Made by a program: the position numbers and the translations under genes. A DNA stretch of 60,960 nucleotides, counting the filler, from Sphacelaria rigidula (Eukaryota), in assembly GCA_964200075.2 (NCBI GenBank). It is 2 parts of 2 records of this genome, joined end to end, with 100 filler letters (N's around TTAATTAATTAA, not from the genome) between each part and the next. Parts side by side here need not be neighbours in the genome. Positions count along the whole stretch, not along the records: positions 30,550 to 60,960 come from CAXNAA020000062.1; 1 more part is not named here. The stretch is one strand, 5' to 3'. Under the pieces are notes generated by a model that was given only the letters and a program-made list of their open reading frames with translations, was not told the DNA's origin and ran no database searches. Below, piece by piece: positions 30,450-60,417 of this stretch (the stretch's first letter is position 1; every line of letters starts with the position of its first letter).

Positions 30450-30549
30450 NNNNNNNNNNNNNNNNNNNNNNNNNNNNNNNNNNNNNNNNNNNNTTAATTA
30501 ATTAANNNNNNNNNNNNNNNNNNNNNNNNNNNNNNNNNNNNNNNNNNNN
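30450..30549. other. Assembly gap / contig linker
   Basis: N run containing TTAATTAATTAA (stops in all six frames) at 30494-30505. A smaller 10-N gap lies at 1613-1622. Confidence 0.95.
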
Positions 30550-30914
30550 AGGCGTCCGCATAAGATGCCCAGTACCAACGTACCGCGCAGATATCGGAAC
30601 AGTTTTCAATGTGAAGAACAACAAAAACAACAGCAAGTGCGGATGTACCCTCTCTACGGCGTTTCCCGGTCGATTCTGTTAATTCGACGTTTTGAAGAAT
30701 CTTTCATCGCAGAGGAGTGGCAAGCAGTGTCGGAAACCGTGAAACCCCCATGACAGCAACACCAGGAAGACAGGTGCACTGAATTCTTCCTCACACCTGC
30801 TGCTCGTGGCACCCGAAAACGTTAGTTTATTTCGTGATGACGTACTAGAGAAGGACAATGAACATCGACTTCCAGTAACTTACACACGAGTCACTCCGCA
30901 CACTTGAGCTTTAC

Positions 30915-33900
30915 CTGCACCGTTATAAACTTCAGCAGGCGCCACCGGCTTGGAAAGGGCAGTTTGTAGAGACGCGGGATCACCATCGAGGAAGGCCTGA
31001 ACAGCTGACTGGTAGGCTTCGCTCACGCACCTACCGTGAAGGAATTTTTACCGAACATTAAGACACCAAGATACGAACGACTCGTCTCAACTCCTGTCAA
31101 ACACCAGTTCCGAATATTACGAGCTGGACTACACATGTACGCAACGTTGCAGCAACATCTCAAGGAGAGGCCGATTCTACGCGGGTTGGAATCACGTGCC
31201 AGCCCTCAGAAACACAGGTGTCTCGATGGTTTATCCGCATGTTTTGAAACAGAAACTTGGATATTCTCACGAGTCATCGTCATCGGGCAATACCATACAG
31301 GCATATCCACAAGCGCAGCGTAGGAATCACAACGAATTCAACTGCATTCCGGAACTCGGATCAGATGAATGTCGGTGATAAATGATGGATCACAATGATG
31401 GCTCACAAGACCTGCAGACTATCAAGTCAATGACTCCCAACATCGTTCATTTCTCGTATAACGCTGTGCTCATTGCTCAGACAACTGCACGCCACTCTCA
31501 TGCTAATATCATCGCTCATGAGCCCTCAGAAACACAGGTGTCTCGATGGTTTCTCCACATGTTTTGAAACAGAAACTCGGATATTTTCACGAGTCATCGT
31601 CATCGGGCAATACCATGAGGCATATCCGCAAGCGCAGCGTAGGAATCACAACGATTTTAACTGCATTCCGGAACTCGGATCAGATGAATGTCGATGATAA
31701 ATGATAGATCACAATGATGGCTCACAAGACCTGCACAGACTATCAAGTCAATGACTCCCAACATCGTTCGTTTCTCGTATAACGCTGTGCTCGTTGCTCA
31801 GACAACCGCACGCCACTCTCATGCTAATATCATCGTCGCTCATAAGCCCTCGGAAACACAGGTGTCTCGATGGTTTCTCCACATCTTTTAAAACAGAAAC
31901 TCGGGTATTTTCACGAGTCATCGTCATCGGGCTATGCAATGCAGTCTCGATCATGGATGACGGCGCACAGGATTAAATTATAGACTACGGCTCCCCACAT
32001 CAATTTTTTTTCTCGGATGAATCTAGCTCCGTCTCAACAACAAGAGGCCCTGTCACACACGCAACATCGTTTTGAAGCCCTCAGAAACACAGGTGCCTCG
32101 TTTGTTTCTCCACACGTTTTGTAACAGAAACTCGGTCTTACTCACGAGTCATCGTCACTGGGCTCTACAAGGCAGCGTACAGGATATTACTGGGGATTCC
32201 TATATGTAACGACACATCGTTTGATACGGCAAGACAAGAAAAGAATGGCATGTGCCCGCATATCGTCCTCACCCAATGTCTTTGTTGACACTCAGTGTGG
32301 ACTGCACCGGGTCCGGTATACCCTCTCCGTCCCTGCCCTTGGCAGCCGAGGCAAGTATGATCAACAGACGGGGTGAGCCGTTTTTTTTCACCGGTTGCTC
32401 GCTGGATGAAAAGGTGGTGACAATCCGCGGCATCTTCTTCACCACGGTGCCATCTTCGAACCTAGGGGTAGCAATGGATAGGGGAATAGAGGAACCAACG
32501 TGAGCATCACGTCCCGCACCAGGCCTGCTCTTTTCATCATGGAAGTGAACCAACACGAGTTATTAGGTAATACATACGTTCTACAGGAAAGCTTGAACAT
32601 TCGACTCTGTACGGTGAGGAAAACCTTGCAACGAACTTCCTTGACCACAATTTGCTTCGAAGCTGGGAGGTAACTTATACTCAACAATGCGTTTGAGAGC
32701 GATTTTTTTTCCCCAACGAAACACATCATGTTGGCTACTTCATAGTGGTCACTTCCGTTATATCGTGAGCCCTTTGTGGTGGGCCACTTCTGTCATATCA
32801 CGAGACGAACAGGAATAAAAATGATGCTGCACCTCCCCCAGCACGATCACCTGTACCGTGGTAAGCGTACCGCAAACATCAATAAAAACACATCAGCAAA
32901 TGCTCCCTCAACGTTGTGAAAGCCAGTATTTCGGTGCATGTTGCCTCAGTAGCGCATGATGACAGGACCAGACTACAAGGGGCCAATTTCGTTAAATGTG
33001 TGACCTGCTGTCATGATACACGACACCAGATATCCTCAGAACCTAAAGAGGTGTTGCCGCCGACTGTGTAAAAGGTGATTATATATGACTTCAAGTATCC
33101 TCTAGCACCAATTATCTCATGTGCCACATATTTTATCATTGTTTTCGCACCTCAGCGTGTAGGCAGCTCTCTTCGTGCCCGCGTGTTTGACCTTCACCAC
33201 CTCCGCGCGGTACCACCCTTCCTGAAAGATGGCATTTTCCCACGCTTTCACCTTCCCCGAGCCTCGACCGTCTCCTTGACCTCGTGTTCGACGTGCTACA
33301 ACCGATTCCCCCTGGGAGAAGGTTGGGTACGCTCCTACAGGTGAAGCCGCGGGCATGAACAACCAGAGACGCAAGAAGTGCGATGCGGTGTCGAATACAT
33401 CTATTCTTCCTCACCAAAATTTCACGTGTCGAAGAAAGATAGAAGAGAGGCAAGCTGGGAGAAGTGACCACTCAGTTCAATTCGATCGTTTTTTCCACCG
33501 TTCTTCGACAAAACTCCTTATTTGGCCAATATGAATATGCGGTACGAAACAGGAAGATATCCTCGTACCGCCCCAACTAGTTGAGCGAGTCATTCCAAGG
33601 TGTCAAACTCCGCCTTCCCCTCTTCTGGGACATCAAACGACGGAAAAGTTCAAAAACGGCCGTCTTCCAGATTTTCCTCCTCGTGTTATGACAGCATTAT
33701 ACCAGGTTGCACGAACTGAACAAGTGTGTCGCAAATTTCAGCACCGAATTTTTCGATAAATATTCACATCGCAAGGAATTTCCGAGGTGTGTACCCTGCG
33801 ACCTCGGTGCTCGACAGGAACGAAACCGCCACATCCATGTGAACACCAGTACACTCCTCACCTTCAGCGCCAGGGTGGCTAAATGCAGCTTCGTACTTCA

Positions 33901-36900
33901 ACTTTGACCGGGCGACCTCCGCGTGAGCAGCCGCTGCTCGAGAGACGTCGAAGCCCGTGTCCTCTGCGAACGAAGGTGTTATGGAGTGCTTCACCCGAAG
34001 GGCGTGGTAGTTGCGGGCAATGAAATCCAGCTGCTTCGGTTGTAGGTATCTTCGCAGTTGTTCCAGTATGGCAGCAGCGCAACAAGAGGAGGTGAAACGG
34101 ACACGGGGAGACGCGTGCTCGTTGTACTACATGTACTTGTAAACGCTGTACCTCGCACTCTCACGAAGCAAAGAACCACGCCGCGTGAAGTGGAGCCGGG
34201 CTCGCAGTCGCACGAGTGAGCTCTATCTCGCCAAGATCGTCTAGCACAAATCGTATTCATCATCTCGCGTATGGAGTACAGTCTACAAGGAGTTCATTTC
34301 TTGCTTTGCACCCTCAGGGATTGCCACAGATCATGCACCACATGGAACACCACGCCGTGGGATATTTTTCGTTGCGCGAAGGTCGGATCCTACACTTCGC
34401 GTAGCATGACCTAGCCCGACGAACATTTCGGTCACGGCAAAAAGAAAAAGTGAACCCAAGTTGCCCCGACTGCCTGGGATGCATAGTAGTGGCGTCACTG
34501 GACGACAATAATATTTATATAGGTTGGCGGGGTAGCAAGGTAGAATCGGGGTTCGCGAGGGGGGTTGGGGAGTTAGGGATGGGTTAGGGGCTAGGGGGGT
34601 GACCCCCACGCCGGCGAATCTAGAGAGTAACGCAGTAGGGTCGTTCTTCTTCGATTCGTCGCACTCATCACCAAAAAGTGCCATGTCCAGGTAAGTGTCC
34701 GGTCCGTGACAGGCGCCCTCAATTTCATCATGTGTCGGGCAAGTACGATAATGAAGACAGCTTTTACCCTGATTTCCCAAACACGAAAGGGACCCCAGGG
34801 TCACGGTCCTCCAGCATCTCGCCATGTTGGTCTTCCTCTCGATATAGACGGTCATTTGGCAGCGGAAACTTGGCAAACGAGCGTCGCGTCCGCTGGACTA
34901 GGTCCTTCGATGTTTGAGGGATGTTCCGGCATCACGATATCGTCACGATAAAACTCATCCCCAACCGTAGTGAAAGGTCCAACTTTTGACAGTGTTCCAG
35001 GGTCTTCCTCGTGTACCATCTCTGATAAGACAAGACATTGTTCGGACAGTGGGCAGCACACATAAACACGCGCGCACTTCCCGGCGGGGGGGGAGGGGGG
35101 GGGAAGGTGTGTGCAGGTGTGCGTGCGTTCGCGGGGGGCGGCAACACTGTGCTTCCACACTTACTTCGTTCGCGTAGTATCCACGCCGTCTTCTCCGTAT
35201 AAAAATTGGTGCACGCAACCCTCCCCGTCTCGCACGGTATTGTCGTAGCTCACCTGATGAATACCACATAATGAATTTTACGAAACTGTTGAGCACTTCA
35301 AAGTATCGCATCCACCGTCTCGCGTACACAGTTCACACATCCATCTACCGCGTTCTTGACATCTTTCAAACACCCATCGAATCGTCAGACATTGATTGCA
35401 TCGATACAGAGGAGGGTGCAAAATTCTTGATCCGATACGAGTATCACGGCACAAATTTTCAATTTTGCTCCTCGTTACATCGGCCGGCGATACAGTTCGG
35501 TATCACGTAGAAGTGCTCTATTTTATCGACGTGTTTTGCCTGGTGGTCGTATCCTGCGTGATATCCATGACCATTTCACACAGGCGTAGCTTACCGCAGA
35601 ACCTCAGAATGATCGGCGTAACTACCGAAATCGACGCTGAGTAGCAAGAGTTTTCGAACCATCCCTTGACCAGTCGCAAACTTCGGGAGTTCAAGGACCA
35701 TCGCCATCGCGAAACGCACCTTCAGTTCTTCGAGGTGCTTGACCAGACAACGCTGAAGATAACCTGAGCGAGAAGTCTTGACCGCAGTGTCCACCAACCC
35801 TTCTCGCCCGGCCATACAGTGAAAATAGTATTCCTACCGCATGCGTGAATGAAGGCAAAAATCACGTGGAAAGACGCGAAATCGGGACACGTCCAATATA
35901 ACTCCCCGGATAGGACGTAGCCCTTTCGTACCGTCAGAGAATTGCCACATAGGCACCAACACATGCGAACGAGATATCATCTTGAAGATGAAAATGAAGG
36001 ACTAGAAACAGCTCAAGCGCAAGCCATTTTGAGGTACGATACAGTCGGGGACAACTGGGTACCACTGTAGTCGGCGTGTGCATCAACATCACTTGCGACG
36101 GCGAATCTTCTTCAACAACTGGCGAGAATGTGACCGCCGCTTTCCAAGTCGCGTTCCCATCGTGCTGATGCCATCGCTGCAAAACGATGACAGATGCCAC
36201 TGGGAGGCGACAGTTTCTACGACGTGCTGGTGTTCGTTCTCGCTGTGCGAATGATAGGAGAGAGCCATTCATGTCGGCGTGTTTCATGAAACACTCCAAT
36301 CGGCCAACACCTGAGAATTTTTCAGCTAAACGTGAGTCGACACGGGACAATTTCGTAATGCTGTATGCCTGTCCTCCTCTCAAACCGTACATACATAAAA
36401 ATACCAATTTCCCGGGTTGGCACGCTGCACTCGGGTCCCGCACGTCCTGTATCAACGAGAAACGTCCCCAGGTGTGGTCTCGCGTACAACCTTTCCGAAC
36501 TCACGTGCGCCCAGGGTGTTTTACTCGGTGTACAACACAGCAAATCACCTGGGGTCGGATGCCCGTGAGGAAGCGATCGGTGATGAAGCCATTTGCCCTG
36601 GGGCTTGGTTCAAATGCCTGGAAGGACGGAAGCGACTTCCCGGATATCATTACCGGAACACGGCGTCCCTCCAGAGCCTGCTGTCCCAGGGCACATGATA
36701 CCTAAAATTGGCAACATGGAATGGAGGCTCAAAATAAGAATACCTAAGGAACGTGTTTACTACAATTTCTTTGTCAAAATTCGAAAAAATGATCAGTAAA
36801 ACACAACTTGGGACCTGGGCGCACGTGAGATCGGAAGGGTTGTACGCGAGACCACACCTGGGAATGATTCACCATAGATCCTTTGGCACCCGTGAGCACC

Positions 36901-39900
36901 ATGAGGCTGAAACAGTTGTGAGGGAACGGCTTCTGCTGTCCTTGTGGGAGGCAGGCCTTGATGATGTCGGACGAAACGGGGGCCAGCGCGCTCTGCATAT
37001 GCCGGTCGATTTCCGCCAAACGATCATCCCTGAATTGTTCCAGGGGCGCACGTTTTCGTTCGCTAATTCCGGGAGATTCTTTATACTTTTTTGGCGTATT
37101 TCGACCGTGGGATGGTGCGGAATGGGAGATCTGAGCATGGTACTCCGCATTACGGAATTTTGTTGTTGAGGGTGTGGAGAATTCCACCATGGAAGCAGGC
37201 CGAGGGCAACACATGTCACGAATTTATCCCAACGAGGGAGGAGGCAGACAAATACAACTGGAGGAAACGTCACTTGTTTCTCACCTCCCTTCTCCCAACA
37301 AGTATGCGGCTGTCCGTTGCCTGATGACCTCCACCTCATCTTCCGTGAAGGGAGTATTTGACTGGCTGGAATCCCCAGGCTGCGTACCATCGGAGGAAGA
37401 TGCTCCAACGTCCCCACCGCCGTCTTGCTGACTCAACATTTCTTGCATCGCTCGTTGCCCCAGCACTTGCGACTGCCACATAAAGTAGAGAGCACCACCG
37501 TGTTACACACTACCCCTTCAATTTGGAGACTTTCGGAAATCGAAGGGCATTCGGCGATATTCAATTTCGTGGGCAACCATAATATGCAGCCTCTAGCGCA
37601 GTCGCGGAATATAACGGATTCCAAGTCCGTCATCTCCTGATCACGGCCCACAACGATAGAACATACGTGATAACTTCTGGCCTTCAACATGCCATTAAAT
37701 CGCGGTTGGTGGCGGTCGACACGTGCACATGTAACATGTGTGATGTGCTCCGTTGTGTGCTCAGAGATTGTTCACCCGGTCCAACTCGTCAGGCTAGAAG
37801 ACACGATGAGCATCGGCTTTTTGCCACCCACTATCGCATCTTCCCCGCCCTCGGCATTTATTTGTCGAGGGAAGAACGGCTCCGTATTCTTGTGTATGGA
37901 CATAATTCTCCATCACGGCACACAGAGGATCACGACACATCCTTGTTCCCACGTCGAGTACTCAGGTGGAAATGCAGGAACGAAGCTCGATAGGCGTGCT
38001 CGCATCGGAGAAGAGCCAAAGCCATACCGTGTTCACCAACTTCAGTACAGCCTCATGATGTACCAAGTGTTTGGAATACGCAGTGTAGGCAACTAGGCGC
38101 GGAGGTACTTTTCGCCGAGTCATGACGATTTATTTCATCAAGTTAACGATAGCCATCGGACTGGAAACAAGGCGAGCTCTAGAAAAAATGAACTGCATCA
38201 TGTCGTGAAATGCGTAGGGTATAGACTACTGCGTATATTGCAATATACCGTAAATATATGCGGTAAACTTTCCGACGGCAATACCTGTTATCTAGGTGGG
38301 AAACAAGATGCAATCCGATCGGGATCAGATTCTCAGTTAGCTAATCCACTTATTGCAGGCCTTTTGTTCAAATCAACAAATTACAAGCACGGCATCTCGA
38401 CAGTTATCCCGCACTTTCTCCTCCCGTCCTCCCGTGTGCAAGGGATATTTAGGGCCAAATCTATCTCGAAGTGAATGACGAACCTTGGAGATGATAGCAT
38501 GTCGCTTAATTTCCGCCTCCACGTTGAGCGTCAAGTCTTCAATCCCACAGGTGTGTCCAGCCCACTGGAGGAATATGGTGAGAACTCGCCCCAATGCCTG
38601 CACAATTCGTCAGTCACGTTTGTCGAACGGTTGCGAAGTTGCACTGGCAGTAGATATCCGCACTCGCGAATTCAGTTGCACTCATCATCGAGATGTCATA
38701 CGAGAGGTTGGCAAATACTCAATATATTTATATATATATATATATATATATATCCTGTCCGACGATGGTCCAACACAGGAAAGCAGTTACTAGTTGTGTT
38801 ATGCGCTGCCTCGTCTTTGATTGAATCACTTCCGAAGTGATGAGGAAGGTTACGATAAACAATCGCTGGTACACACCGTCAGCAGTTTACCGGCCGCCGT
38901 GGAGCCGTAGAGCTCGTGTACTGCATGTACCATCCCGAAGTCGGTCGCTCCAAAGGCTCCTTTGTCCAGCACACCCTGTTCACGTGATGACGTATTGCAG
39001 CAGAGTGGTGAGCCCCTCTTCCTTCGTAACTTTTTGCTCGCCCTGACCCCCAACACGAAGCGCAGTATCCGATACTCATACGTGAAAGTACGATGTGAAA
39101 TTGACAAGGTTTGTCGTAATACGATTGGTGTTGATTCAACTCACGGCACCAAGATGAAGGGCGATTGGCGAGGCAGACAAGTGTTGATCCTCGGAGACAG
39201 CGATTTCGTCGAGGACAGTCGTACGCAGAAACGAACCTGGAGCAACTCTCCCTCGCGGAAGATGACCTGGTGCTCATTTTCAGCAGCCCCAAATGCTACG
39301 GGAGGGGTCTTCGTCTTGCTGTCCAAATTGAGCTGCGGTAGTCCTGCGGTAAGATGCTTCACGATTGTCGACATCACCTGCGTCATCATCCGGAGCAGGG
39401 TGCGACTGTCGGCTCCGCGGTCAGGCAACGACCACTGAACCTAGACCGCAGCCAAATCTACTGCGATGTTGTTATCATTAAATCATCACCTCACACCGGA
39501 GCACAAAGCGAACTGGGGAAATGATCGCGAGGTGTACGGGCGAATCCTACTTGCATAACCGAAGAGGGGAATATATGTTCACCTGCTTCCCACTCCATCT
39601 CTGCGCAGGCTTGATTATCGCAGGCGGCAGGGTGAAGATGTGGCCAGACGGAGGAACAATTTCCAAGCCAGGCAAACCCGAGAGAGCCTGGTAAACCAGC
39701 TGTTGATACTCTCCACGAGTAAAAAAGCAATCCTGGATATCGAAACGACAAGAAAACAGCAGCAAATTGTGGCAACCCTTGCACAAGTGACGCGATGGAG
39801 TCCCACATAAGCTTGTTCACAGGGCATGCAGAGAGCGTACATACAACTTTGTCTTGGACTTCATGACATGACAGACGACCCCACGGCGAAATTCCGCCCG

Positions 39901-42900
39901 GGGTTTGGAAAAAAAGTGAGTATGGAGGACAAGAAAGCTATCGCACAAACGGGGTGAAGAAAGTAAGGATGACAAGAATACGTGCAAAACCTCATTTCTA
40001 CCCGCTGCCGTGGAGAGGGAATTCACCTTGGAGCACATTTTGACTCCGGAATCGACGTGATCTTGAATCAGGCCCCGCAGAGGTTTGCCGCTGGTCGGGG
40101 CACAGTACTGCTCATCTGTGAACGCTAGCAGATTTGCCTCCGCCTTCGCGACCTCATTCTGTGATGAGCAATCGTGGGCATTGAGGACCTGCCTTAGCAC
40201 TCTGGTTTTACGATCGAAAAAATGAGCCGGTGGATAGATGTGGGCGAGAATATCTCGTTTTGATGCAGTCGGATCAGGATGGACTACTACATTTTCGATC
40301 GAAAAAAGAGGTGTAAAAACGTGGCTGCGGCACTTGTTCTTCATTGTTGTAAGTAACATAACATCGCTGGACATGCCCGAGATGCAAGTTGATGGCGAAC
40401 ACACCTGCGGTAGGTGGCAGTTGATCTCGTCTCCGTCAAAGTCGGCGTTGTAGGTGTTACAGTTGGCGTAGTGCATGCGGATGGTTTGATACGTGGGGTT
40501 GCGAAGCACCCTGACGCGGTGCGCCATGATTCCCGGTTTGTGCAACGTCGGCTGCCGGTTAACCAGCATGCAGTCACCGTCGTGCAGATGACGCCAAACC
40601 TTAATAGAAATTGGAACAATAGCAGTGCGAGAAGGCAGCCACGAGATGGGCGTCTCAATTAGCAAAATTAAGAACACTGTAGACAGGCGCTTCTTCATAA
40701 ATAAAATCTACGGCGAGAACGTTCACAACCCCACGACAGGCACAACGGCGGCTGCTACCTTCTGTCCCGGCGTTGACAGAAGCCTCGCTGCAATGCCTCG
40801 CCGTTTCAACTCCGGCAAGCGAGCCAAATGTAACATGCGTCCCTGAGCGTCCTCCACGAAGTTTGCTCCTGTCGAGGAAGCGGACATGAAACCATCGAAT
40901 GCGAGCATCAATCGTCAGATTTCATGCAATCACGTGACACTTGGCGTTGCGGTTTCTGCAACCTCATACTGTCGGCGAACACAGTTACACCGAATGACAC
41001 TTCGACCGCACCGCAGAAAAAGTGACTTGTGTATCTCAAGTAGAAGCATGGGACTTTCGTCTCGGCAAGTTGGGTCCACGACAACTTGATAAAACCTACT
41101 CGCGAGTCATCGGACGGACTCGGGAAACACGACTTCGCCAGTCGATGGGCGGGACCGCTTCTGAGAGTTGTGATGGAAAATCCACGAGTTGAGTGCAAGC
41201 AGCACACGGTGCACACGAAATGCCTCACCGGGGTATTCATCGGCACCCGCTTCGACCAATTCTCGCATAGCCTGGACGTTCCAATCGGCTACCGGCTGCG
41301 GATAGGTGAGCTCCTTGGCGAAGCGCAAGGGGATACCGATTTCGGTGGTGCCTAGGTATGGATCTGGAGAGATGACGGACCGGCAGGCAAAATTTACGCG
41401 CTTCCCCATCATGTGCTTCCGGAACAGCCCTTCCTTCTTCTCGAGGACCTGTAAGCAAGGGTGTTGAGGCAACATGATCGACTTGGGCGTGGGCCATCAC
41501 GATCGAGGAAGCTCAACAAGTGGAAACCTCGCCACAAGAGCCTGAACATCACACTTGCGACTTGTTCCGAGCAGAAGTAGATCTGCTCTTAAAATCAGTC
41601 GCGAGAGGGTCGAGAAATGTAGGGCTTCATAGTACATCAAGGTATTTCACCTGCCTCAATCCAGGCGCCGTGTCCTTCCCTCCACGAGGATCTTTACTGC
41701 TGTCCATGAAACAGTTCACGGTTGTTTGCAGCTCGACCCAGGTGGTCAACGCGCTGAAAAGTGAAAATAAAAGCAGGGAGACAAGCGTGCAAGGAGCTCA
41801 ACGTGAGCAGAATATACCACAGCTTAATCGAAATGAGATGCGAGCACTTCACACAACTGCACGTCGCGGGTTGAGCGGGTGTGGGCATGTCAATGACATG
41901 GTCGATGATGCATGCGCTCACCCCCACGTGTCGCTGTGCCGGAGCTATGTCGCAGCCCAGATCTTGATAATCCGTCACGATGTGGTCATGCGACACGTGA
42001 CTCAGCGGGAAGGGCAACAGGCTACCTCGAAGTGAGAATCGAATTTTGTCCCCGTGATATTGCAATATATACAGGTGCTTTTACTCAGTTCAGCAGGGCG
42101 CATCACTCATGAAGGGGGCCTCAGTAAATTTGTAGATAAGTTTTCTTTGGTGACTCTTCAACAGTGTTCAGAAGTCGGCAAAGTTTTCACATCACGGGTC
42201 CCAGCACCTGAAAACGTTCACCGCTGCGAACGCCGCACAGGGTGTACGTCACGGAGTTTCGTCTTGCTCTTTCCACGACGGATCAAGACGCATTGAGAAG
42301 CCAACAATGGACATGATCTAGCATACTTGCGTGCCGCTCCCGAAAGCTACGGGATCGCTAGTAAACTTGCTCACGGCGGCACCACGAGAAAATATCGTCG
42401 TGTGTACTCGAAAATCATACCTGGCCAAGTCGTCGCCCTTGAGGCTATCCGCGTTTTTGAGCTTCTCGTTGAGCCCAAGCACCTACGTTACGATCATCGG
42501 ACACGTACATGAATCGACGAACTTGTCTTTTGTGATTCATCAGGCATTTCGTATGCAGTCCAAAAATACGCACAATACAATTGAGGTATCATCAAACTGC
42601 TGTCCGCCAAAGTGGCACAACCCCACATCGTGCATTCCTACAAAGATTCATCAGGGTTAAAAAGCTCGTGCAGATTGATCCTCACTGATCGTTCAGAATT
42701 GGATTTGCATTCTTCATCATCTGAATCTCGTTTGTTGGAAGGGAGCACTTCACCGAAATAATAAAAGCAAATGTTCACACCTCGTACGACGTCCTCCTAC
42801 AGAGATTCATCAGGGTTAAAAAGCTCGTGCAAATTGATCCTCACTGATCGTCAGAATTGGATTTGCATTCTTCATCATTTGAATCTCCACCATCCGTGAG

Positions 42901-45900
42901 AGGACTCGCACCACATTCGCCGCGTGATATCAATCATTTTACCGCTGGGGCTGCGGTTACTCATCAACTCTTTTTTTGAGTACGTTAGAACCACCGCGCC
43001 CCGTATTGGAGTGGGCTGCCGACTAGTTAATAGAAGTTAAGATACATGGTTCAAATCCCTATGCGTTGCATATTTCCCTCGAAGTATCTGATTCCCACCA
43101 CCGAAAGCGCCAGTACGTGAGTGAACCAACAAGAATTTAACCAGAGTTTGACGAGGGATGACTCGGTGGGGGAGGGCCGATCGAATCCGAGAGACCGAAA
43201 TTCAAGGCGGGTGGGGTGCAAGACGCGTCGATCCCGCGACTTTACAGACTCGTCCCGAGGAAAGGGGGGGGGGGGTTGACGTGCCACGTACCAAAAATAA
43301 CATAAAAAACGTTTTCCACATACTCGAGGTCATGTTGGGGCTAGACGACTTTCATAGACATGAGGGGAATATGTCAACGTCACGTCCATAGCTTGAGGTA
43401 TTTCACCCGCCTCTTCCAACCTGCGACAGCACAAATGGAAAAGAACGACCCACCTTTTGGAGGTAGACATTTTGCGGGTGCTCGGCGACGAAATCTCCCA
43501 TGTCCATCGGTGGTCTGAACCTCGGCGGGGGGATAGCAATCGCACGGATGAAAAATACCCGAAATCCTCCCTGTCGACATTCCGCCACTCTCTGCCTCTC
43601 CGCCTCGTCTCCCTCACCCAAGTCCTCACGATCATCATCTTCCTCTATTGCCATGCTCTTCCACGCGTTGTTCTCGCCGTACGCGAACAACAAATTAAGG
43701 ACGGCAAACTCCTTTTTCCAGAGGAGCTGCATCTGTAGCTCAACCTCGATCGTGGGCATGAACTTATGTGCAGGCTTCGTAGTGACGTCTGCACTACCAG
43801 CCCCTGCATCTGCCACTGCGGGATTGATCCCCCTCGAAATGGCGCTGCCGGGGTTGCCATCTCCGCCGTCCAAATCTTCACCGTCATCGTCACTGTCGTC
43901 CGCCGACATCGGGTCAGAGTCGTCACCAGTTTGATCATCGTCCGCATGTCGGTCGTGACCGGGCATCCCAGGATCTCGGCTCTACTTTGAGGGTCAAAGA
44001 ACACGGATGTATGATGTGTGACGGGAGTGGGTGCGGATTGGGTGCGGATTGGGTGCGGAGTGGGTGGGTGGGTGGGTGGGGGGGGGTCAATCCTCGTGTT
44101 GGATCAACTCACGTTAACCAAGAGCTGCAAGAGGAACAGAGGTACGACTTCTACCCGCACGATCACGATGTGCAGGTGTTCGCCGCTCACACATCGAATG
44201 ACTCATGGGCTGCAAAACCATCAATCACCATGTGTACTGGCACCCTGCTTCTTCATTTTTCCCTGCCGCGCTGGACGCTAGGCATGATGAGTAGCGCAAA
44301 CATGACGCCTCAGCTTCTCGTGGTGAATCGTCTCACCTGGACAGCAGATGAAATTTCCGAGTTGACTGCACGATTCGCCTGGCGGGACTTCTCACTCAGT
44401 GGTACCTGAAAATAGGTGCACCCGAAGTAAGTGTTCAAAGAGACGACGGTCGTTTCCATCGTTATATCATGCCAGACGCCATTACGCCAGAGTGTGTCTC
44501 GTTTTGGTGCATCTCAGAGACGGGCCCGTACGGCCCATATTGCTCAAAATCATACTCACAAGGCATGATGAGTAGCACAAACAACTCTAGGGATGGCTGT
44601 TCGACCCCGCGACGATTCGCCACACAGCGCATCATGTTCCTATTCAAATGTGCAAGAAAATCAAGAGTTTTGATGTGGAGGACAGAACAAGGAAAAAACA
44701 GGCTTCCTTACCCGGAAGTAAGCATGAACTGCGGCAACATGGGGGCACTTTACTCTCGGGCAGTCGTGTTATAAGACCGGCAACTCACGCCACCTTCTTT
44801 CGACCCAACGAACCATCAGTAAACACGAAGTTATGTAGGATGATAAAATATGCGGAAAGTTGTGCACAGGCTGAGGTCCAACACAATCATGTTCGCTCAG
44901 TAGGAAGGCAGCATGAGTTGCGTCAACATGGAGCACATGGCTTTCTGTGGACACATGTAAAATCATGGCTCATCATCGCGAATGTCGTGTTCTCCGATAA
45001 TATTCCCTGATTTCCAACATACACAATATCATGTCCGAAGATTTCACCTCAACACGTGCGATGTGGGCTTCAATTCGCTCTTCTCCTCATGAACTTCAAT
45101 TCACTTTCGCGCACTGGGTTCAGTTCATCGTTGTAGTGATCACATTTCGAATGCGTCAAGAAAGGAACATCACACATAATTCACGGCTACAATTTCGGTG
45201 TTCGACAGCAATCCTTGCTCGAAGCCTCACCAAGGAAATGATCGTCACCTGGAATCATGGGTGAAACCACTACTTCAAACTCAGCAGATGCGGGAAGATA
45301 GAAAAAACTGATGATCGTGCACGACGGGGCAAACAGTACGCAGGTGGGGGGCCGGAAAAACAAGGCGACCTATACATTTCTTCGAAGTCCATGATCGATT
45401 TCTCCGAATAAACCGACCCCGACACAAACCGTCATCTCAACACCGACCCAATTGCTATCAGAACCCTCGGGCGAAGATGGTGCATGATCACCCTCAGCAA
45501 GGTTCACGTCAGAGGCACTCAGATCGACGCCGCAAGCATTTAGCATCGACTGTCGAGAATTTTCTCCAGTCTGAAATCAAGTAGTCACGCTGTCAACCAG
45601 ATACGAACGCTCAAAGCTCCAGAGGTGTACTGAAAAAAAGCACGTTCGCTCAGTAGGAAGGCAGCATGAGTTGCGTCAACATGGAGCACATGGCTCTCGG
45701 AGAACACAAAAAGTCATGACTCATCATCGCGAAACGCGCTCATATCTCGAGCTATACCACCACAAAACCTGCGGACGAGCTTTGGCCCGTTTCATCTCCT
45801 GGAAGCTAGATTACCCTGACGCGTGAACGTGCACCGCACCGGTATCATACTTCCAGCTCAATAGCAACATCGTGAACATCCCCTACCGCATGTTCCAGGG

Positions 45901-48900
45901 AAAAGCACTCGCCGACGAAATATCATCGCGGCGCAAGATTTCGAACCTGAAAGAGCTTGTTGGAACCATCCTTCCTGATATTCGGAGAGAAGGCCCCGCA
46001 GTTCTGACACTTCTTGCTCTCTCCCATGGTCTTGACGAGGCTTTCCACCAACTGTCGTCTGAACATCGTAAACGAGTCGGGCGAACGAAACACCTGGATC
46101 ATGTCAAAATAATGGAACATGGCCCTGAAACGTAACTCTGGGCACTCAACTGTTCAGCACGAACTCGTGGGACACAGAGGTACTTTCAAGAACAGCTTAC
46201 CGCAGAGCCCGATTGTGACCACCACACCACCGCGCTCGTGGACGCCCCTCGAGCTCGTCCTCCAAGCTCCCGAGTATGCGATCTCGGTACCTGACCAGTT
46301 TTCATGAGGACGATACTCGCACCAGTCAACGAATGCACACAGACCGCGTACACAGATTACGGTCACGAAACGCTCATCGATCATAGATTGCAAACGTTGG
46401 ACAGCTGTTTGTGTGTGGGTTTGTGTGAATCAGGTCATTTGGCTTCCCGTTATGTTCGAGCATCCGAATCATCACCTAGCTGAGTTGGCACATTTCCTCC
46501 ACAGTTGCTCACAGACAGCGCTGGATGACAAACCACAAACGGTAAGTACCGTAGTGCAAAAGGTAGCGCTAGGGTTCTTGTCCAAGGAACATCTTTTGCA
46601 ACCAAGGGTTTGTATTTGTAAAACTCAGTCGAGGAGTCTGTGCCTGATGAGCGTCAAGTCAGTCGTTCAGGTCGACTCTGGCCCATACAATTTAGTTTTG
46701 CACTCTCAGGTTCTTGGATAGAGCATGGTACGACTCTTCAAAACTGGGGGTCATAGGTTCGAGTCCTGTAGAATATGTATCAACCAAATCGTAACTTTCC
46801 GTAAGGGTCGATGTAGGCACGGGGGCGACGTATGCACACGTACAGCGACAGGGACTCCACAATATTTGCCCTTTATCGCCACGCGACCAGTAGGGACAGA
46901 TCGGATTGCACATATCCGATCCGCCGCCCTCAAGTGCGTGACAAACATGACACCAAACCCGCCTCACCCGTTGGCGGAAACAAGGCCGTTTTTATCGGGA
47001 CTATCGCTTGTCCGTGCATCATCGCGGAAGCTGTCCTGACGCAAGTATCCCAGTAACGAATCCTCCAGTTCCAAAGCTTCTTGGGCACGCCCCGCATCGA
47101 CCAGCATGATCTGGGAAAGATACGCCGGAAAGGGGAGTGTTTTCAAGTATCTCGCACAATACGGGAACAGTACATTGCACGCATTTCCATGGCTGAAATG
47201 GCACGGTCATTTCGTGAATGGCCATGACAGGCAAGCTTGTAATTGAGGATGCCTCTACACACGGCATCAAGGGCTAGGTCACGGGGATGCCCAGAAGTTC
47301 ACCGGGTGTCTCACACCATCGTGGGAACATGCGTCCCGGGCAAGACAGGAGTAACTTATTTTCGCCATTGCGTGTAGAAGGGGACCGACGCATGTTTCGA
47401 CTATTCCGGGCCTCTCAACAAACGCCCATGTCACTTCAGACACTGTACCAAACTTGTACTGGGACCGGGTGAATGTTGACTTAATGCCCTCGCTCTTCGA
47501 CGAACATGCTCAGAAGCTTACCAGGTTCATGTCACCATTGTGGGATATTTGGCCCACGTAAGACAGGGATAACTTTTCATCATCATTGCATGTGGGACGA
47601 CAGATACGTTTTTCGATTGCTCAGAATGCTCGCGGGCTACGGTTCCGTCAGGATAGATGTGGCCGAGGTCACGTGGTTCGATACCCTCGATCTTACACAC
47701 ACATGCTCAGAAGCTTACCAGGCTCATGTCACCATGGAAGGGGGATGAAGCGAGTCGTGAGTTTCAAAGACCTAACCCCAACCCTCACGTACCTCGACCC
47801 TCACACCCCCAGGGTACGTAAGATTTCGGTCATCGTCATTGCATGTGATATCACAAGAAAGTACTTACTGCCGCTAGTAGTGGAGACGTGAAAGGGAAAG
47901 AAATGGAAAATCGAACATGCTGTCGTGCATGCGACCAGGCGAAGGCAACACCAGCGTTTTTTTCCAAGAAATCGACGTCATCCTCGAGTGCAGAACTGGT
48001 TCCGAACCATCACACTTGTAACTCGGAGACGAGGAAACACGAGTTAAGTATTCGCGACCACGAGCCAATCAATGATTGCACGAGGGACCACAGCTGAACT
48101 TCATCATGCAATACAAGAATGATTGCAGATGTGGACGTTCATCAAGATATGCGTCCACATTCGGGATCGAGATCCACAAACATACGCCTGACTCATTTCT
48201 CCGGTAACATTGCAGCCACGAGAGATCCAACACTCGACAGGTGAGAGCGTTCAGGATATGTTGGCACCCGGTCCGTCCATACCAAGACGTCAAGCTAAAG
48301 GGTATTAACTAGCTTTTCATCTAGTACCTGAGTCACGATTCGCTCCTCAACGTAGTTGCACCTAATCGGGGCATCAAATAAGTAAAAATGGTACTCCGAT
48401 ACGTCGCACGTAGGTATATGTGCAGAAGGAATCGACACGGTGGGGAAGCCCATCAGAGGTCCACCTCCGGCGCGCAGTGGGAGTCGGATTTTGCTCGGAA
48501 GCTTACCAGGTTCTTGTCACCACTCAGGATCGAACATCCTTCCAAGATGCATCCGGTAAGACAGGGATAACTTTTTATCGTCATCGCAAAAATCCCGGTT
48601 CCGGCCCCGTGTGTTTCCTCTCGATGTATGATACATTTCGTGAGAATCGTGGAGGATTTTGCCGCTTCCCGCCCACTTGAGGTTTTGCTCGGAAGCTTAC
48701 CAGGTTTCTGTCACCACTCAGGATTGAAGAATACATTCATCCGGTAAGACAGGGATAACTTTTTATCGTCATTGCAAAAACCCCGTTCCCCGCCCCGTGT
48801 GTTTCCTCCCGACGTATAATACATTTTGTGGGAATCATGAAGGATTTTGCGCTTACCAGAGGTTTACCTCCTGCGCGTAGATGGAGTCAGGTTTTGCTCG

Positions 48901-51599
48901 GAAGCTTACCAGGTTCTTGTCACCACTCAGGATCGGACATCTTTTCAAGATGCATCCGGTAAGACAGGGATAACTTTTTATCGTCATCGCAAAAAATCCG
49001 TTCTCCGCTCAGTGTGTTTCCTCTCAACATATAACATATTTCGTGGAAAAACACATCTGTCATTCAAGACGAGTTTCCAAATGCTGCGGTAAGACGGGGA
49101 TAACCTTTAACGCCATCGGAAGAAACCTCCCTTCCTGCCCCGTACTACCTCTCGACAGATTATTGTGGAAATCATCTACATCTTGCGTCATGCCCCGTCA
49201 GGAGGCTCAGAAAGGTGCAACAACCCCAAGGTGGGGTACCCCCATGTTGAGGTGAGTTATAACCGTATCATGTTTCAGATGTGCTCGCCACCCACTACAT
49301 CTCGAGTGATGTAGGCCAGAGTGGTACTTGATGGTTCGAGCGCATGTCTTCTGAAAGACACCAAAAACTAAGGGAATACAGGACACATCATCTCAATCTC
49401 ACCTTGACTGCGGCGACGCGTGTCTTCGCCTTGGACAGTCGAAGATTGTGGCAGTTGAAGCACTTGGCGCGCATTAGTTTGTACAAGGCGCCGAACAGTA
49501 GTGGATGGTAGACCGAGACGGCAAGCTACAGACCGTGAGCATTGACGGTCGCCGCCGAGAGAGAAGCATTAACAAGGTGGGATGCAGTGTCGGGTCACTC
49601 ACATGACAGTTGTACGCTAGCTTCCGAAATGCAGCAAAGGATAATGTCATCGGATAGACCCCGAATCAATACCACCACGATCTGTGCCAGCCGAAAACAG
49701 CCTTTTTTTGAGCCACACGTCACTCCTGAAGTTCGATGAACTGGCCACATGAAGACGTATCGCACATCGATGAGAAGTGCATATCAAACCACCCATGCAC
49801 GCTTTGTTGTCCAAATATTTTCTCGTGTATAAATGTATCCCGAAATGCATTACTTCCTGTACTCCGTTCAACAGCGACGGCGTCTATACTGCGCAAAATA
49901 TTGTAATTGGAGCTCATGATCTTCTGTCCTTGTGCGAGTCTCGCTTACATACGCTCTAGAGAATGAGTGCAGTCATATCTTACAATAGTGGAATGAACGG
50001 TACAATTCGACGAGTTTGGGCTGAAATTGCACACATACGTTCTACACGTCAACACATGGAAGATGACAGCGGCAGCTCAAAACATTTTGTATCGTCGTAC
50101 AGCCATGACATTTCGATTATTGCTTCTTGTATCAGGCCTTGAACGCGGTACAGGTCATGCGTTGTCTCGGTATCGATTTCACTCCACACTATAATGCCTG
50201 ACCAGATGGCCTGCGCTCGCGGTCAAAAGTTGAATTGGTTTCATTTATTTCTTCTCTCGGCTACTCGAACCGCGGTCCGTTCAAAACTAAAGCGATACAA
50301 AGTTTGAGCCCAACTCGTAGCCACCTTCATCCCTGCGCGGATGAAGACACGGGTGTGGCAGTACAGGAGTCACACGTTAGAGCATCAATGTACCATTTGC
50401 TCAGCGTTCGAGACAACACCGTTCCATCAAAGCCTTGTGCAGCAATTACCTCGATGTGTCCAATGTGCCCCGGACAGTTCTTCTGGTCTTGTCCACATGT
50501 CTCGCACATCATATGTCGGTCAACGGGGCCCAATGCAGGGTCGTAGAGACCGCTGGGGGGGGGCGCACGCAGCGACCGAAAACAAGGGGCATGGTAGCGC
50601 GGAAAAAAAAAAGCCAAGACGGGGACATGGCACAGGAGTTGAACCGCAGGATGTCACACAGTGGCACACGAATGCAGGTGGGGCACTCCTGCCGCGCGAG
50701 TGTTCGATAGCGGGTTCGCCAGAAGTGAGTTCTCGCACGGGTTACTTCAGGGCGTCTGACCTAGGATCTTCATTTCATGCAGACTGTTATGATAATGTAG
50801 TCACTTCCTTCGCGGTCAGGACAAAAAAGCGCCATCCGGGTAGGAATATTTGTACAAAGGCCTCCCCGCTACGCAGTCTAGTCTAATGTTTTCAGGGCAT
50901 CACACGCGGTATCATAGGTGCAGCGACACCAGACTGCACGTATAATGCATGTGCGACGCACCCACAAGAGACAGTGAGGCAAGATGAAAAACATGCAGCC
51001 TACTCAATGCAGACAGGATCGTGAACGTTGCGTCCGTGGGTGGCCACCGGCGATCGACCGTGTGGAACAATCGCCAACTACAGTCGACAGCTGCTGCTTA
51101 CAAGCTGTCGCCGACGGGAGCTCGGCAAGGTTGAGTCTGGCACAGAGTCAATGACGTAGGCCGTTGTAGCGACGAGACATCTACACCGCACCGTTAAAAA
51201 CCCTATGAGTGTACTTGTGCAAAACCAAATCACCAGCAATTGACGCTGCACCACAACCTTCCCCGAGCCGCCGACCTCCAGCCACACACAACTACGCGGG
51301 CCTTATGGGGAAAACATGAGGTACACCAACAAGTTAATTACAAAGAAGACAAGCAGCAGCGCTGCATCCAGGTTTGAAACTTATTTTGTCCCAGATTTGC
51401 AAGACATCTTTCCATCCTACTGCACTTCAGAGAACGTGAAATGCATCCAGTCTTACCCCGGCAGAGGGTTGTTAAGCGTGTCGAACGTAACGGGTGAGGT
51501 GATGCGCTTGACGCTGAGCCTGCGAATGTCCTCATCCGTGAAGAAGCCGAAACCTATCTCCTGCACCGCATGCCTGATTACGGTCCTGTCGTGCGACAT
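30915..51599 (-). CDS. RPA1: DNA-directed RNA polymerase I largest subunit; 27 exons traced, 3' part missing at the assembly gap
   Basis: Phase-consistent GT-AG exons: 51599-51457, 50552-50450, 49525-49403, 47110-46968, 46290-46201, 46058-45947, 44405-44337, 43981-43454, 42482-42421, 41753-41651, 41448-41229, 40868-40759, 40599-40405, 40158-40027, 39732-39583, 39377-39237, 38975-38877, 38597-38484, 37472-37285, 37029-36858, 36701-36549, 35833-35720, 35253-35165, 34049-33862, 33334-33151, 32461-32273, 31030-30915. Motifs: [41 protein letters not shown] (Pol I type); VNRQPTLH; catalytic [58 protein letters not shown]. Confidence 0.97.
31202..31288 (-). ncRNA. Box C/D snoRNA family F, copy 1 (LSU AAC[A/G]CAGGUGUC guide)
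   Basis: Minus strand: GCCC stem, box C ATGACGA, guide GACACCTGTGTT, box D CTGA, GGGC stem. D' reads CCAA here, so possibly decaying. Confidence 0.6.
31522..31608 (-). ncRNA. Box C/D snoRNA family F, copy 2
   Basis: Box C ATGACGA, D' CCGA, guide GACACCTGTGTT, box D CTGA, terminal GCCC/GGGC stem. Confidence 0.7.
31846..31932 (-). ncRNA. Box C/D snoRNA family F, copy 3
   Basis: Same core; box D variant CCGA; AGCCC/GGGCT stem. Confidence 0.65.
32077..32163 (-). ncRNA. Box C/D snoRNA family F, copy 4 (diverged)
   Basis: Only the ~87 nt core is conserved relative to copies 1-3. Box C GTGACGA, guide GGCACCTGTGTT, box D CTGA. Confidence 0.6.
37754..37924 (-). ncRNA. Long box C/D snoRNA, predicted guide for the LSU A-loop Um (yeast 25S U2921 equivalent)
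   Basis: Perfect 7 bp terminal stem TGTGTGC/GCACACA; box C variant GTGATGG; D' CTGA; 12 nt guide GGGTGAACAATC (complement of LSU GAUUGUUCACCC) one base before box D CTGA. Confidence 0.7.
42114..42202 (-). ncRNA. Box C/D snoRNA, U50/SNORD50-like LSU Cm guide
   Basis: GGGACC/GGCCCC stem, box C variant GTGATGT, guide TTTGCCGACTT (complement of LSU AAGUCGGCAAA) directly before D' CTGA, box D CTGA. The D+5 rule gives the C of AAGUCGG. Confidence 0.75.
42644..42728 (-). ncRNA. Box C/D snoRNA, U36a/snR47-like (18S Am, yeast A619/human A668) with a second guide 15 nt downstream; copy 1
   Basis: AGATTCA/TGAATCT stem, box C ATGATGA, D' CTGA, C' GTGAGGA, 14 nt guide ACGAGCTTTTTAAC (complement of 18S GUUAAAAAGCUCGU), box D CTGA. 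Confidence 0.92.
42802..42887 (-). ncRNA. Box C/D snoRNA, U36a/snR47-like; copy 2
   Basis: Near-identical tandem copy with an 8 bp stem GAGATTCA/TGAATCTC. The spacer between copies is not conserved. Confidence 0.92.
44892..44982 (-). ncRNA. Box C/D snoRNA, 18S Am guide (yeast A420/snR52 site; human A468); copy 1
   Basis: TTCGC/GCGAA stem, box C ATGATGA, 12 nt guide TGCTGCCTTCCT (complement of 18S AGGAAGGCAGCA), box D CTGA. Confidence 0.9.
45645..45733 (-). ncRNA. Box C/D snoRNA, 18S A420-equivalent guide; copy 2
   Basis: 3' half identical to copy 1, 5' half diverged; boxes and stem retained. A decayed third copy lies at ~44712-44770. Confidence 0.9.
46700..46772 (+). other. Degenerate tRNA-like sequence (possible SINE head or tRNA pseudogene)
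   Basis: CTCAGGTTCTTGGATAGAGC resembles a D-arm/A box, and GGTTCGAGTCC at 46756-46766 is a perfect B box/T-loop. No clean acceptor stem. Confidence 0.35.
47504..47593 (-). ncRNA. Box C/D snoRNA, snR38-like (LSU Gm, yeast G2815) with a second 18S guide; canonical-box copy
   Basis: ACATGC/GCATGT stem, box C ATGATGA, 12 nt guide AGTTATCCCTGT (complement of LSU ACAGGGAUAACU) before D' CTTA, guide ACCTGGTAAG (complement of 18S CUUACCAGGU), box D CTGA. Confidence 0.85.
48489..48591 (-). ncRNA. Box C/D snoRNA, snR38-like; variant-box copy
   Basis: TTTTGC/GCAAAA stem, box C ATGACGA, both guides intact, box D CCGA. Confidence 0.8.
48683..48779 (-). ncRNA. Box C/D snoRNA, snR38-like; variant-box copy
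   Basis: Same boxes and guides, shorter central loop. Confidence 0.8.
48892..48994 (-). ncRNA. Box C/D snoRNA, snR38-like; variant-box copy
   Basis: Same boxes and guides. Decayed relatives lie at ~47287-47372, ~47703-47846 and ~49080-49120. Confidence 0.8.
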
Positions 51600-60046: not shown

Positions 60047-60243
60047 GGCCGTGTGTTATCAAATTTCTTTCGACTCGAAAACGTGCGGTGGAATATCATT
60101 AATTTTGTTCGTACCTGATACGTCCTCGGCATTCATCTTCTCTCAACCATATGAGAAAATAAATAACCTGGACGTTATCAGATACAGGCGAATTCGATTC
60201 GACCGCACGTTTTCGACACCAATTACTTGTATAAGACACGGCC
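60047..60243. mobile_element. Tourist-like MITE, same terminal motif
   Basis: GGCCGTGT...ACACGGCC termini, internal inverted TCGAAAACGTGCGGT/ACCGCACGTTTTCGA, 3 bp duplication TCA on both sides. Confidence 0.75.
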
Positions 60244-60417
60244 TCAGGGCAACTATTAATCTTCGTATCGCCAAAAGTGAGAGTGGGGGAAACAATCCGA
60301 TGAGGATGCGAAAAGGGACATAAAACGGTTGCCATGACTGGGCTGTTCGGCTTTTCACAGCTGGCTTTCCCACCACCAGCGGTAGCCACGCTGTCTTTAT
60401 TCCCATCGCCAGCATTG

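Follow-up and report, generated by a model that had tools for sequence, protein, structure and literature searches.

Can a single gene of a brown alga supply both an enzyme of ribosomal RNA (rRNA) synthesis and the small nucleolar RNAs (snoRNAs) that guide modification of that rRNA? The question is raised by a stretch of 60,960 nucleotides (nt) from Sphacelaria rigidula (GenBank assembly GCA_964200075.2; the whole analysed stretch is called the window below) in which a minus-strand gene, RPA1, encodes the largest subunit of RNA polymerase I (Pol I). Seven introns of this gene contain 16 units that resemble box C/D snoRNAs; these fall into seven families (A, four units; G, E, and F, one each; B and C, two each; D, five), and all of them are located on the strand of the host. 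Judged by their sequences, the units are very probably real box C/D snoRNA genes in sense orientation. A preliminary description of the window had counted six families in six introns, with 14 copies on the host strand; this count equals the set of 16 minus E, which is doubtful, and D2, which has lost one guide.

The RPA1 host gene and its introns

When the RPA1 exon block is translated, its best matches among solved structures are to Pol I rpa1 (127, 117, and 112 bits), vs 63–70 bits for RPB1 and 58–66 bits for RPC1; the host named in the preliminary description is thus confirmed. A 72-amino-acid exon is 100% identical to a 1304-amino-acid protein of Sphacelaria rigidula and 88–93% identical to the RPA1 proteins of other brown algae. 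The protein matches also establish that Ectocarpus, Hapterophycus, Choristocarpus, Discosporangium, and Tribonema possess the gene. A tblastn search with the 1304-amino-acid protein locates 24 exon pieces between 51599 and 32272, and the longer protein of a relative adds an exon piece at 31029-30895.

The splicing of the host introns is seen in assembled transcript contigs from four runs of two studies (their label, ‘RNA?’, is a guess); contigs that lack introns can derive only from transcripts. Spliced contigs cover RPA1 with 15 listed joints and 11 more beyond those; all of the 15 listed joints read CT..AC on the plus strand, that is, GT..AG on the strand of the gene. Contig joints directly show the introns of families A, G, E, and D. 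We infer those of families F, B, and C from the tblastn exons, the flanking splice dinucleotides, and contig arithmetic (164 nt of contig lie between the exons at 41228-41446 and 43451-43981).

Contigs of low depth (2–11x; the exons have ~260–520x) are located within four RPA1 introns, at 34088-34911, 35812-36525, 37598-37915, and 46376-46995, and one of these spans unit G; they may represent intron retention or stable intronic RNAs.

The window consists of two contigs separated by a run of N at 30450-30549, the second occupying 30550-60960, and RPA1 runs off its contig at this run. The C-terminal third of RPA1 was not found anywhere in the window, including the neighboring contig (1-30449). 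Because the gene stops at the gap and its last third is not on the neighboring contig, sequence may be missing at the join (a scaffolding gap), or the two contigs may have been misjoined.

Anatomy and conservation of the snoRNA-like units

The positions and boxes of the units are collected in the table. Every multi-copy intron (four of the seven, with two to five units each) contains paralogues of one family only, that is, families are not mixed within an intron. The C box is canonical (RUGAUGA) in B1, B2, C1, C2, D1, and E; 12 of the 16 units have CUGA as their D box. Terminal stems of 4–10 base pairs (bp) are found in 15 of the 16, the longest in B2; F has a possible outer stem of 8 bp (42203-42210 with 42072-42079). 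The preliminary description had ascribed to each unit a terminal stem, C and D boxes, and a 10–14-nt complement to rRNA; this holds in general, except that the stem of F is weak, E lacks a target, and some boxes depart from the consensus.

We scanned the whole window on both strands for such structures. Under strict criteria (a stem of at least 4 bp and exact matches to both boxes), the scan returns eight rows on the minus strand (six loci and two overlapping long combinations) vs one on the plus strand; a relaxed scan returns 19 vs four, and 12 of these 19 (11 loci) are units in the table, the remaining seven being without further support.

A search with the Rfam models, the check proposed in the preliminary description, gives two matches at the gathering score in the window, both to SNORD36 (RF00049): B1 (50.3 bits) and B2 (50.9 bits) match the full model, positions 1-77, with a gathering score of 30. 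When E-values up to 10 are admitted, all 16 matches in 30000-50500 belong to C/D-box families, and 15 of these are on the minus strand; no H/ACA family occurs among the matches at this threshold, although no search was aimed at H/ACA snoRNAs in other introns. D1, D3, D4, and D5 match snoR38 (RF00213) with 32.3, 33.6, 30.9, and 35.8 bits, respectively. Because these scores do not reach the gathering score of 45, we describe the four units as snoR38-like by their guide, GUUAUCCCUGU, which aligns to the snoR38 consensus directly before the D′ box of the model, and not as members of the family. A4 has a weak match to snoZ163 (23.5 bits; gathering score, 39). An Rfam identity for family A was considered and not adopted, its best matches (snoZ163, 23.5 bits; SNOR75, 19.7 bits; snoZ159, 17.5 bits) all being under their gathering scores.

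As the preliminary description had noted, similarity between copies is highest in the cores. In pairs with diverged flanks, core identity is 0.84–0.87 (A4 vs A1–A3), 0.93 (B), 0.91 (C), and 0.71–0.72 (D1 vs D3–D5), vs 0.08–0.64 for the 90-nt flanks of the same pairs; random 90-mers have a mean identity of 0.32 (standard deviation, 0.18). A1–A3 are located in repeat units of ~320 nt that are 92–97% identical, spacers included, and D3 and D5 are 97% identical; conservation within A1–A3 and D3–D5 therefore carries little information, because these are young tandem copies with similar flanks.

The blocks that stay invariant within family D comprise the C box, the D′ guide and box, the C′ box, and the D guide together with its box and stem. 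Although the spacers between D′ and C′ vary in sequence, all of them fold into hairpins. In the 6-bp terminal stem, all 30 of 30 cells are paired, and three of the six pairs have changed on both sides between D1/D2 and D3–D5, that is, the changes are compensatory; when the 3′ partner is slid out of register, pairing falls to 13–60%. A 22-base pattern made of the D guide and C′ box of this family has no match in genome contigs and none in viral contigs.

The preliminary description had also expected a repeat masker to discard the units as tandem repeats; this is so for one of the four multi-copy introns, which is flagged by Tandem Repeats Finder (TRF), and not for the other three.

The box variants show a pattern of their own. 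Two unrelated families (A1–A4 and D2–D5) share a C box in which position 5 is C, and the CCGA form of the D box (A3 and D3–D5) occurs only in copies with an AUGACGA C box. Together, the two variants would turn the U-U position of the C/D kink-turn into C-U or C-C.

Directly 3′ of A2 and A3 (~31468-31525 and ~31790-31845, minus strand) there is a C/D-like mini element of ~56 nt, with a stem GCUCAU/AUGAGC followed by GCGAUGA and then CUGA; neither copy has a conserved rRNA complement, a 10-nt match to one ribosomal DNA (rDNA) being present in one copy only.

Table. RPA1, its snoRNA-bearing introns, and the snoRNA-like units in the window (all positions count along the window)
Feature	Position	Strand	Evidence, boxes, and stem	Guide pairing and remarks
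RPA1, part in window	30895..51599	-	protein matches, spliced contigs	coding sequence starts at 51599
Intron of family A (four units), ~1242 nt	31031..32272	-	joint 31027>32270, CT..AC, cut +3	
A1	31201..31291	-	C AUGACGA, D CUGA, stem GCCC/GGGC	D guide pairs 12 nt with 28S AACACAGGTGTC
A2	31521..31611	-	like A1	like A1
A3	31845..31933	-	like A1 except D CCGA	like A1
A4	32075..32165	-	C GUGACGA, D CUGA, 6-bp stem	diverged copy
Intron of G	37473-38483	-	contig joint	
G	37754..37924	-	C GUGAUGG, D CUGA, stem GUGUGC/GCACAC	171 nt
Intron of E	~39378-39582	-	contig joint	
E	39409..39502	-	C GUGAUGA, D CUGA, outer stem GCUCCG/CGGAGC	doubtful or orphan
Intron of F	~41754-42420	-	inferred	
F	42114..42202	-	C GUGAUGU, D′ CUGA, D CUGA, weak interrupted terminal stem	
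Intron of family B (two units)	~42483-43449	-	inferred	
B1	42643..42729	-		SNORD36; D guide pairs 14 nt with 18S GTTAAAAAGCTCGT
B2	42800..42889	-	10-bp stem	SNORD36; guide as B1
Intron of family C (two units)	~44406-45946	-	inferred	
C1	44892..44982	-	C AUGAUGA, D CUGA, stem UUCGC/GCGAA	D guide pairs 12 nt with 18S AGGAAGGCAGCA
C2	45645..45733	-	like C1	3′ 50 nt identical to C1
Intron of family D (five units), 2292 nt	47111..49402	-	joint 47110>49403	
D1	47504..47593	-	C AUGAUGA, D′ CUUA, C′ UGGUGA, D CUGA	snoR38-like; D′ guide pairs 12 nt with 28S ACAGGGATAACT, D guide 10 nt with 18S CTTACCAGGT
D2, 148-nt variant	47700..47847	-	C AUGACGA; stem, C′, and D box kept	D guide kept, D′ guide lost; longer, foldable spacer gained
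D3	48489..48591	-	C AUGACGA, D CCGA, stem UUUUGC/GCAAAA	snoR38-like; both guides intact
D4	48683..48779	-	like D3	different spacer hairpin
D5	48892..48994	-	like D3	like D3

rRNA complements and predicted methylation sites

As references for pairing we use three complete 18S-5.8S-28S units (L001, L013, and L039), from unidentified eukaryotes, that serve as stand-ins for the rDNA of the alga. They were obtained by scanning a metagenome with a 5.8S motif; Rfam confirmed three of the five long loci tested, and the other two (L012 and L043) were rejected because they have no rRNA match. Exact matches of at least 12 nt were sought between these three rDNAs and the plus strand of the window, which has the sense of the target for a minus-strand guide.

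Six of the seven families (all except E) have a 10–14-nt complement, in conserved 18S or 28S, in register with the D or D′ box. The duplexes end 0–3 nt from the CUGA box (CUUA for the D′ box of family D), so the fifth upstream position is paired. The exact complements of C, of G (12–13 nt, to 28S GATTGTTCACCC), and of the D′ guide of D1 and D3–D5 are found in all three rDNAs, and those of B and of the D′ guide of F (12 nt, to 28S GAAGTCGGCAAA) in two. With one G-U pair, the duplex of the G guide (the D guide) extends to 13–14 bp, and that of the F guide has 11–13 bp; in all five copies of family D, the D guide forms its 10-nt pairing with 18S. The target segments recur in 3–21 of 114 stored loci. 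No convincing in-register complement to the three rDNAs was found for the D′ regions of A, B, C, and G as second guides.

Four of the predicted sites coincide with yeast sites in both nucleotide (A, A, G, and U) and spacing: C would direct methylation of an 18S A that corresponds to yeast Am420, B of an 18S A that corresponds to Am619, the D′ guide of family D (the snoR38 type) of a 28S G that corresponds to Gm2815, and G of the second U of its 28S segment, the A-loop U that corresponds to Um2921. In the available part of the yeast table, the guides for these four sites are snR52, snR47, snR38, and snR52, respectively (PMC5199042). The C and B sites are 199 nt apart in L013 (410 and 609) and L039 (415 and 614), as are 420 and 619 in yeast; the distance between the D′ and G sites is 106 nt in each of the three rDNAs (2782/2888, 2800/2906, and 2813/2919), the same as between 2815 and 2921.

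The remaining sites have no yeast counterpart assigned. The predicted target of A is a 28S A located 169–170 nt upstream of the Gm2815-like site; an assignment to Am2640 was not made, the distance in yeast being 175 nt. The predicted target of F is the 28S C marked in GAAGTC*GGC, which we take to be perhaps a neighbor of yeast Um1888. The U24 site, also considered for F, was dropped, since the rDNA position (~1885-1904) and the available part of the yeast table (PMC5199042) do not support it. F also has, upstream of its D box (42125-42140), a 10-nt element, CUUAUCUACA, that pairs with 28S TGTAGATAAG, located directly 5′ of the D′ target in the rRNA (L001 1873 vs 1884); its end is 6 nt away from the D box, and it looks like an accessory pairing, not a second methylation guide. 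The D guide of family D points at a U in 18S helix 31 that is presumably the hypermodified m1acp3-pseudouridine of yeast.

To what extent could such complements occur by chance? Complements of at least 11 Watson–Crick pairs adjacent to CUGA number 11 on the minus strand and one on the plus strand, vs a mean of 1.96 and a maximum of eight in 500 shuffles. When the complement must be present in at least two of the three rDNAs, there are six on the minus strand and none on the plus strand (shuffle mean, 0.30; maximum, three), and all six fall within RPA1 introns. Similarly, 11 of the 13 minus-orientation 11-mer blocks inside the gene that are shared with at least two rDNAs are within units; the plus orientation has seven blocks.

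No box adjoins the complements at 7596, 17838, 23616, 32328 (within an exon), and 34903; they are at chance level and were set aside. The last of these (34903-34913, minus strand, in the intron at 34050-35164) is an 11-nt complement to conserved 28S TCCTTCGATGT, present in two of the three rDNAs; it is located downstream of GUGACGA- and GUGAUGC-like motifs and is without a D or D′ box. Outside the gene, 8.6 kilobases upstream of the RPA1 start, the minus strand at 60225-60360 contains a 16-nt perfect complement to 18S (L001 position 1556) directly upstream of CUGA, a D-like box at 60247; its seed is also found in L051 and L070. No C box or terminal stem is recognizable in this segment, which may be another snoRNA.

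Alternative explanations, expected processing, and known systems

Several observations weigh against reading the units as snoRNA genes. The support is at the level of sequence; the transcript contigs cover exons and a few intron stretches and no unit, although such libraries are not expected to hold snoRNAs, and this absence is uninformative on expression. Only two of the 16 units pass an Rfam gathering score, and for A, C, E, F, and G no Rfam family gives a significant match. In 10 of the 16 units the C box differs from the consensus at one position but retains G3A4 (AUGACGA or GUGACGA in A1–A4 and D2–D5, GUGAUGG in G, and GUGAUGU in F), and the D box is CCGA in four (A3 and D3–D5); such copies could be decaying. 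The stems of A1 and A2, the shortest, have just 4 bp, and that of F is interrupted. The guide complements were computed on stand-in rDNA; the target of family A forms 12 Watson–Crick pairs in L039 only (there is one G-U in L013, and there is no such pairing in L001), and its seed occurs in four of the 114 loci. E has no complement in register on either side in the three rDNAs. Position 3 of the D guide of family D forms a C-A mismatch in every rDNA seen, and the site predicted for this guide is not among the known methylation sites. Finally, paralogous copies are not independent, so the independent support amounts to ~6 families.

These points could be carried to the extreme, with the units being plain tandem repeats or transposon fragments whose boxes and rRNA matches arose by chance. 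Matches of 12 nt to rRNA are common (~45 per orientation in the window), and the relaxed scan yields both the four plus-strand matches and the seven unsupported minus-strand matches; however, chance does not account readily for two Rfam matches above the gathering score, for complements that lie exactly in the D/D′ register and in four cases agree with yeast sites, for the strand asymmetry and the shuffle controls, or for cores that are conserved over their flanks and a family D stem that covaries, and we regard this explanation as extremely improbable. More serious, and only somewhat short of an even chance, is the proposal that one or a few copies per family are functional and that the rest (A3, D2, D3–D5, and perhaps A1–A3) are young tandem duplicates becoming pseudogenes. 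The near identity of the A1–A3 repeat units, spacers included, makes their conservation uninformative, D3 and D5 are 97% identical, A3 and D3–D5 carry CCGA for CUGA, and D2 is without a D′ guide. However, in D3–D5 both guides and the C′ and D′ boxes are unchanged while the spacer has substitutions and a 6-nt indel, and the stem has remained fully paired through three double changes relative to D1; the core of A4 is retained between diverged flanks; and the restriction of CCGA to copies with an AUGACGA C box fits a tolerated pair change at one position of the kink-turn.

The units could also be genuine and yet be transcribed from their own intronic promoters, independently or as polycistrons, so that their supply would be uncoupled from RPA1. 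In this regard, 15 of the 16 units are located 160–1781 nt from the 3′ splice site, with only E nearby (35 nt); the available text of one study describes a short, fixed distance as important for splicing-dependent processing (PMC2780460), and plant clusters can have their own RNA polymerase II (Pol II) promoter, according to the accessible portion of another (PMC7671301). Against this, all 16 units are on the host strand across seven introns of one gene, and the first of these sources documents, in its available text, intronic clusters that are processed from the host in rice and Drosophila (PMC2780460); we therefore consider separate promoters quite unlikely.

If the units are snoRNA genes processed from their host, Pol II would transcribe RPA1, and the C/D kink-turn of every unit would be bound by Snu13, Nop56, Nop58, and fibrillarin, while the intron is nascent or after its excision. 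The intron would be spliced out and debranched, and exonucleases would trim it to the protein-protected ends. Since several units share an intron, they must be separated by a step beyond splicing and trimming: in the introns with two to five units, an endonuclease would have to cut between them. This cleavage would be a logical consequence of the arrangement, and plant clusters are so described in the available part of PMC7671301. The mature ribonucleoprotein particles would then pair over 10–14 nt with the pre-rRNA and 2′-O-methylate the nucleotide that faces the fifth guide position counted upstream from the D or D′ box. Small RNAs would thus be expected to accumulate from the units together with RPA1 expression, and the named sites to be methylated.

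What does the locus mean? It provides a concrete case of snoRNA organization in a brown alga (intronic, on one strand, tandemly amplified, and in a ribosome-biogenesis host), and it predicts six rRNA methylation sites. The four sites shared with yeast support deep conservation of the Am420, Am619, Gm2815, and Um2921 guides in stramenopiles. Because the Rfam gathering scores catch two of the 16 units, the snoRNA content of brown algae is probably much under-annotated. For one kink-turn position, the box variants amount to a small natural experiment on how much sequence change is tolerated; the variant kink-turn (AUGACGA with CUGA or CCGA), if it works, could lie beyond the textbook description, and the D guide of family D, if its pairing with the 18S helix-31 loop is real, would identify a new methylation site or a chaperone-type pairing. 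A more ambitious interpretation, that RPA1 in brown algae is a dedicated ribosome-synthesis ‘operon’ with a variant kink-turn and an unusual 18S target, seems to us unlikely. If it were true, both the catalytic subunit of Pol I and six or more families of rRNA guides would come from one Pol II transcript, and the capacity for rRNA transcription would be tied to that for rRNA modification; the coupling to Pol I is appealing, yet the choice of host is of a kind already seen for snoRNAs generally.

Among individual snoRNAs, B1 and B2 have the D guide of SNORD36, directed to 18S GTTAAAAAGCTCG, in which position 5 faces the target A; unlike SNORD36, their D′ guide region does not follow the consensus of the model and lacks a conserved complement in rRNA, and they are two tandem copies in an RPA1 intron. 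D1 and D3–D5 share with plant snoR38 the D′ guide to 28S ACAGGGAUAAC, with its 12-nt complement in the three rDNAs; they differ in their D′ box (CUUA, not CUGA), in an invariant second guide to 18S that is missing from the Rfam consensus, and, in D3–D5, in the combination of an AUGACGA C box with a CCGA D box. The two sites of yeast snR52 (18S Am420 and 25S Um2921; PMC5199042, available part) correspond to the predicted sites of families C and G; unlike in snR52, the two guides of the alga are in separate snoRNAs in different introns; the likeness seen is one of sites.

As to gene organization, snoRNA hosts with several snoRNA-bearing introns are also found in vertebrates (e.g., NOP56 or GAS5). 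Like other multi-intron hosts of ribosome biogenesis, a single RPA1 transcript contains several guides, and the host belongs to the ribosome-synthesis program; unlike hosts such as those of Ostreococcus, it encodes the catalytic subunit of Pol I. In Ostreococcus, 72 intronic snoRNAs are reported, 33% of them in ribosome-biogenesis genes and some occurring by twos or threes in successive introns of the same host, and plant clusters are processed from polycistronic precursors (PMC7671301, accessible portion). None of the papers listed in our search names the gene for the largest Pol I subunit as a snoRNA host, although supplementary host-gene tables, which were outside the search, may list one. 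For brown algae and stramenopiles, the literature found on snoRNAs consists of a bulk prediction in Ectocarpus (PMC4513859, in its available part).

The closest parallels are the intronic snoRNA gene clusters of rice and Drosophila, which are processed from host transcripts (PMC2780460, available text). As in those clusters, several snoRNA genes are located in a single intron on the host strand; unlike them, each multi-copy intron of RPA1 contains two to five paralogues from one family that arose by tandem duplication, and the units are distributed over seven introns of one protein-coding gene in a brown alga. Intronic snoRNA clusters are thus known already, and the RPA1 units are fresh examples of a known arrangement, one that is nearer to that of plants and Drosophila than to the vertebrate rule of one snoRNA per intron.

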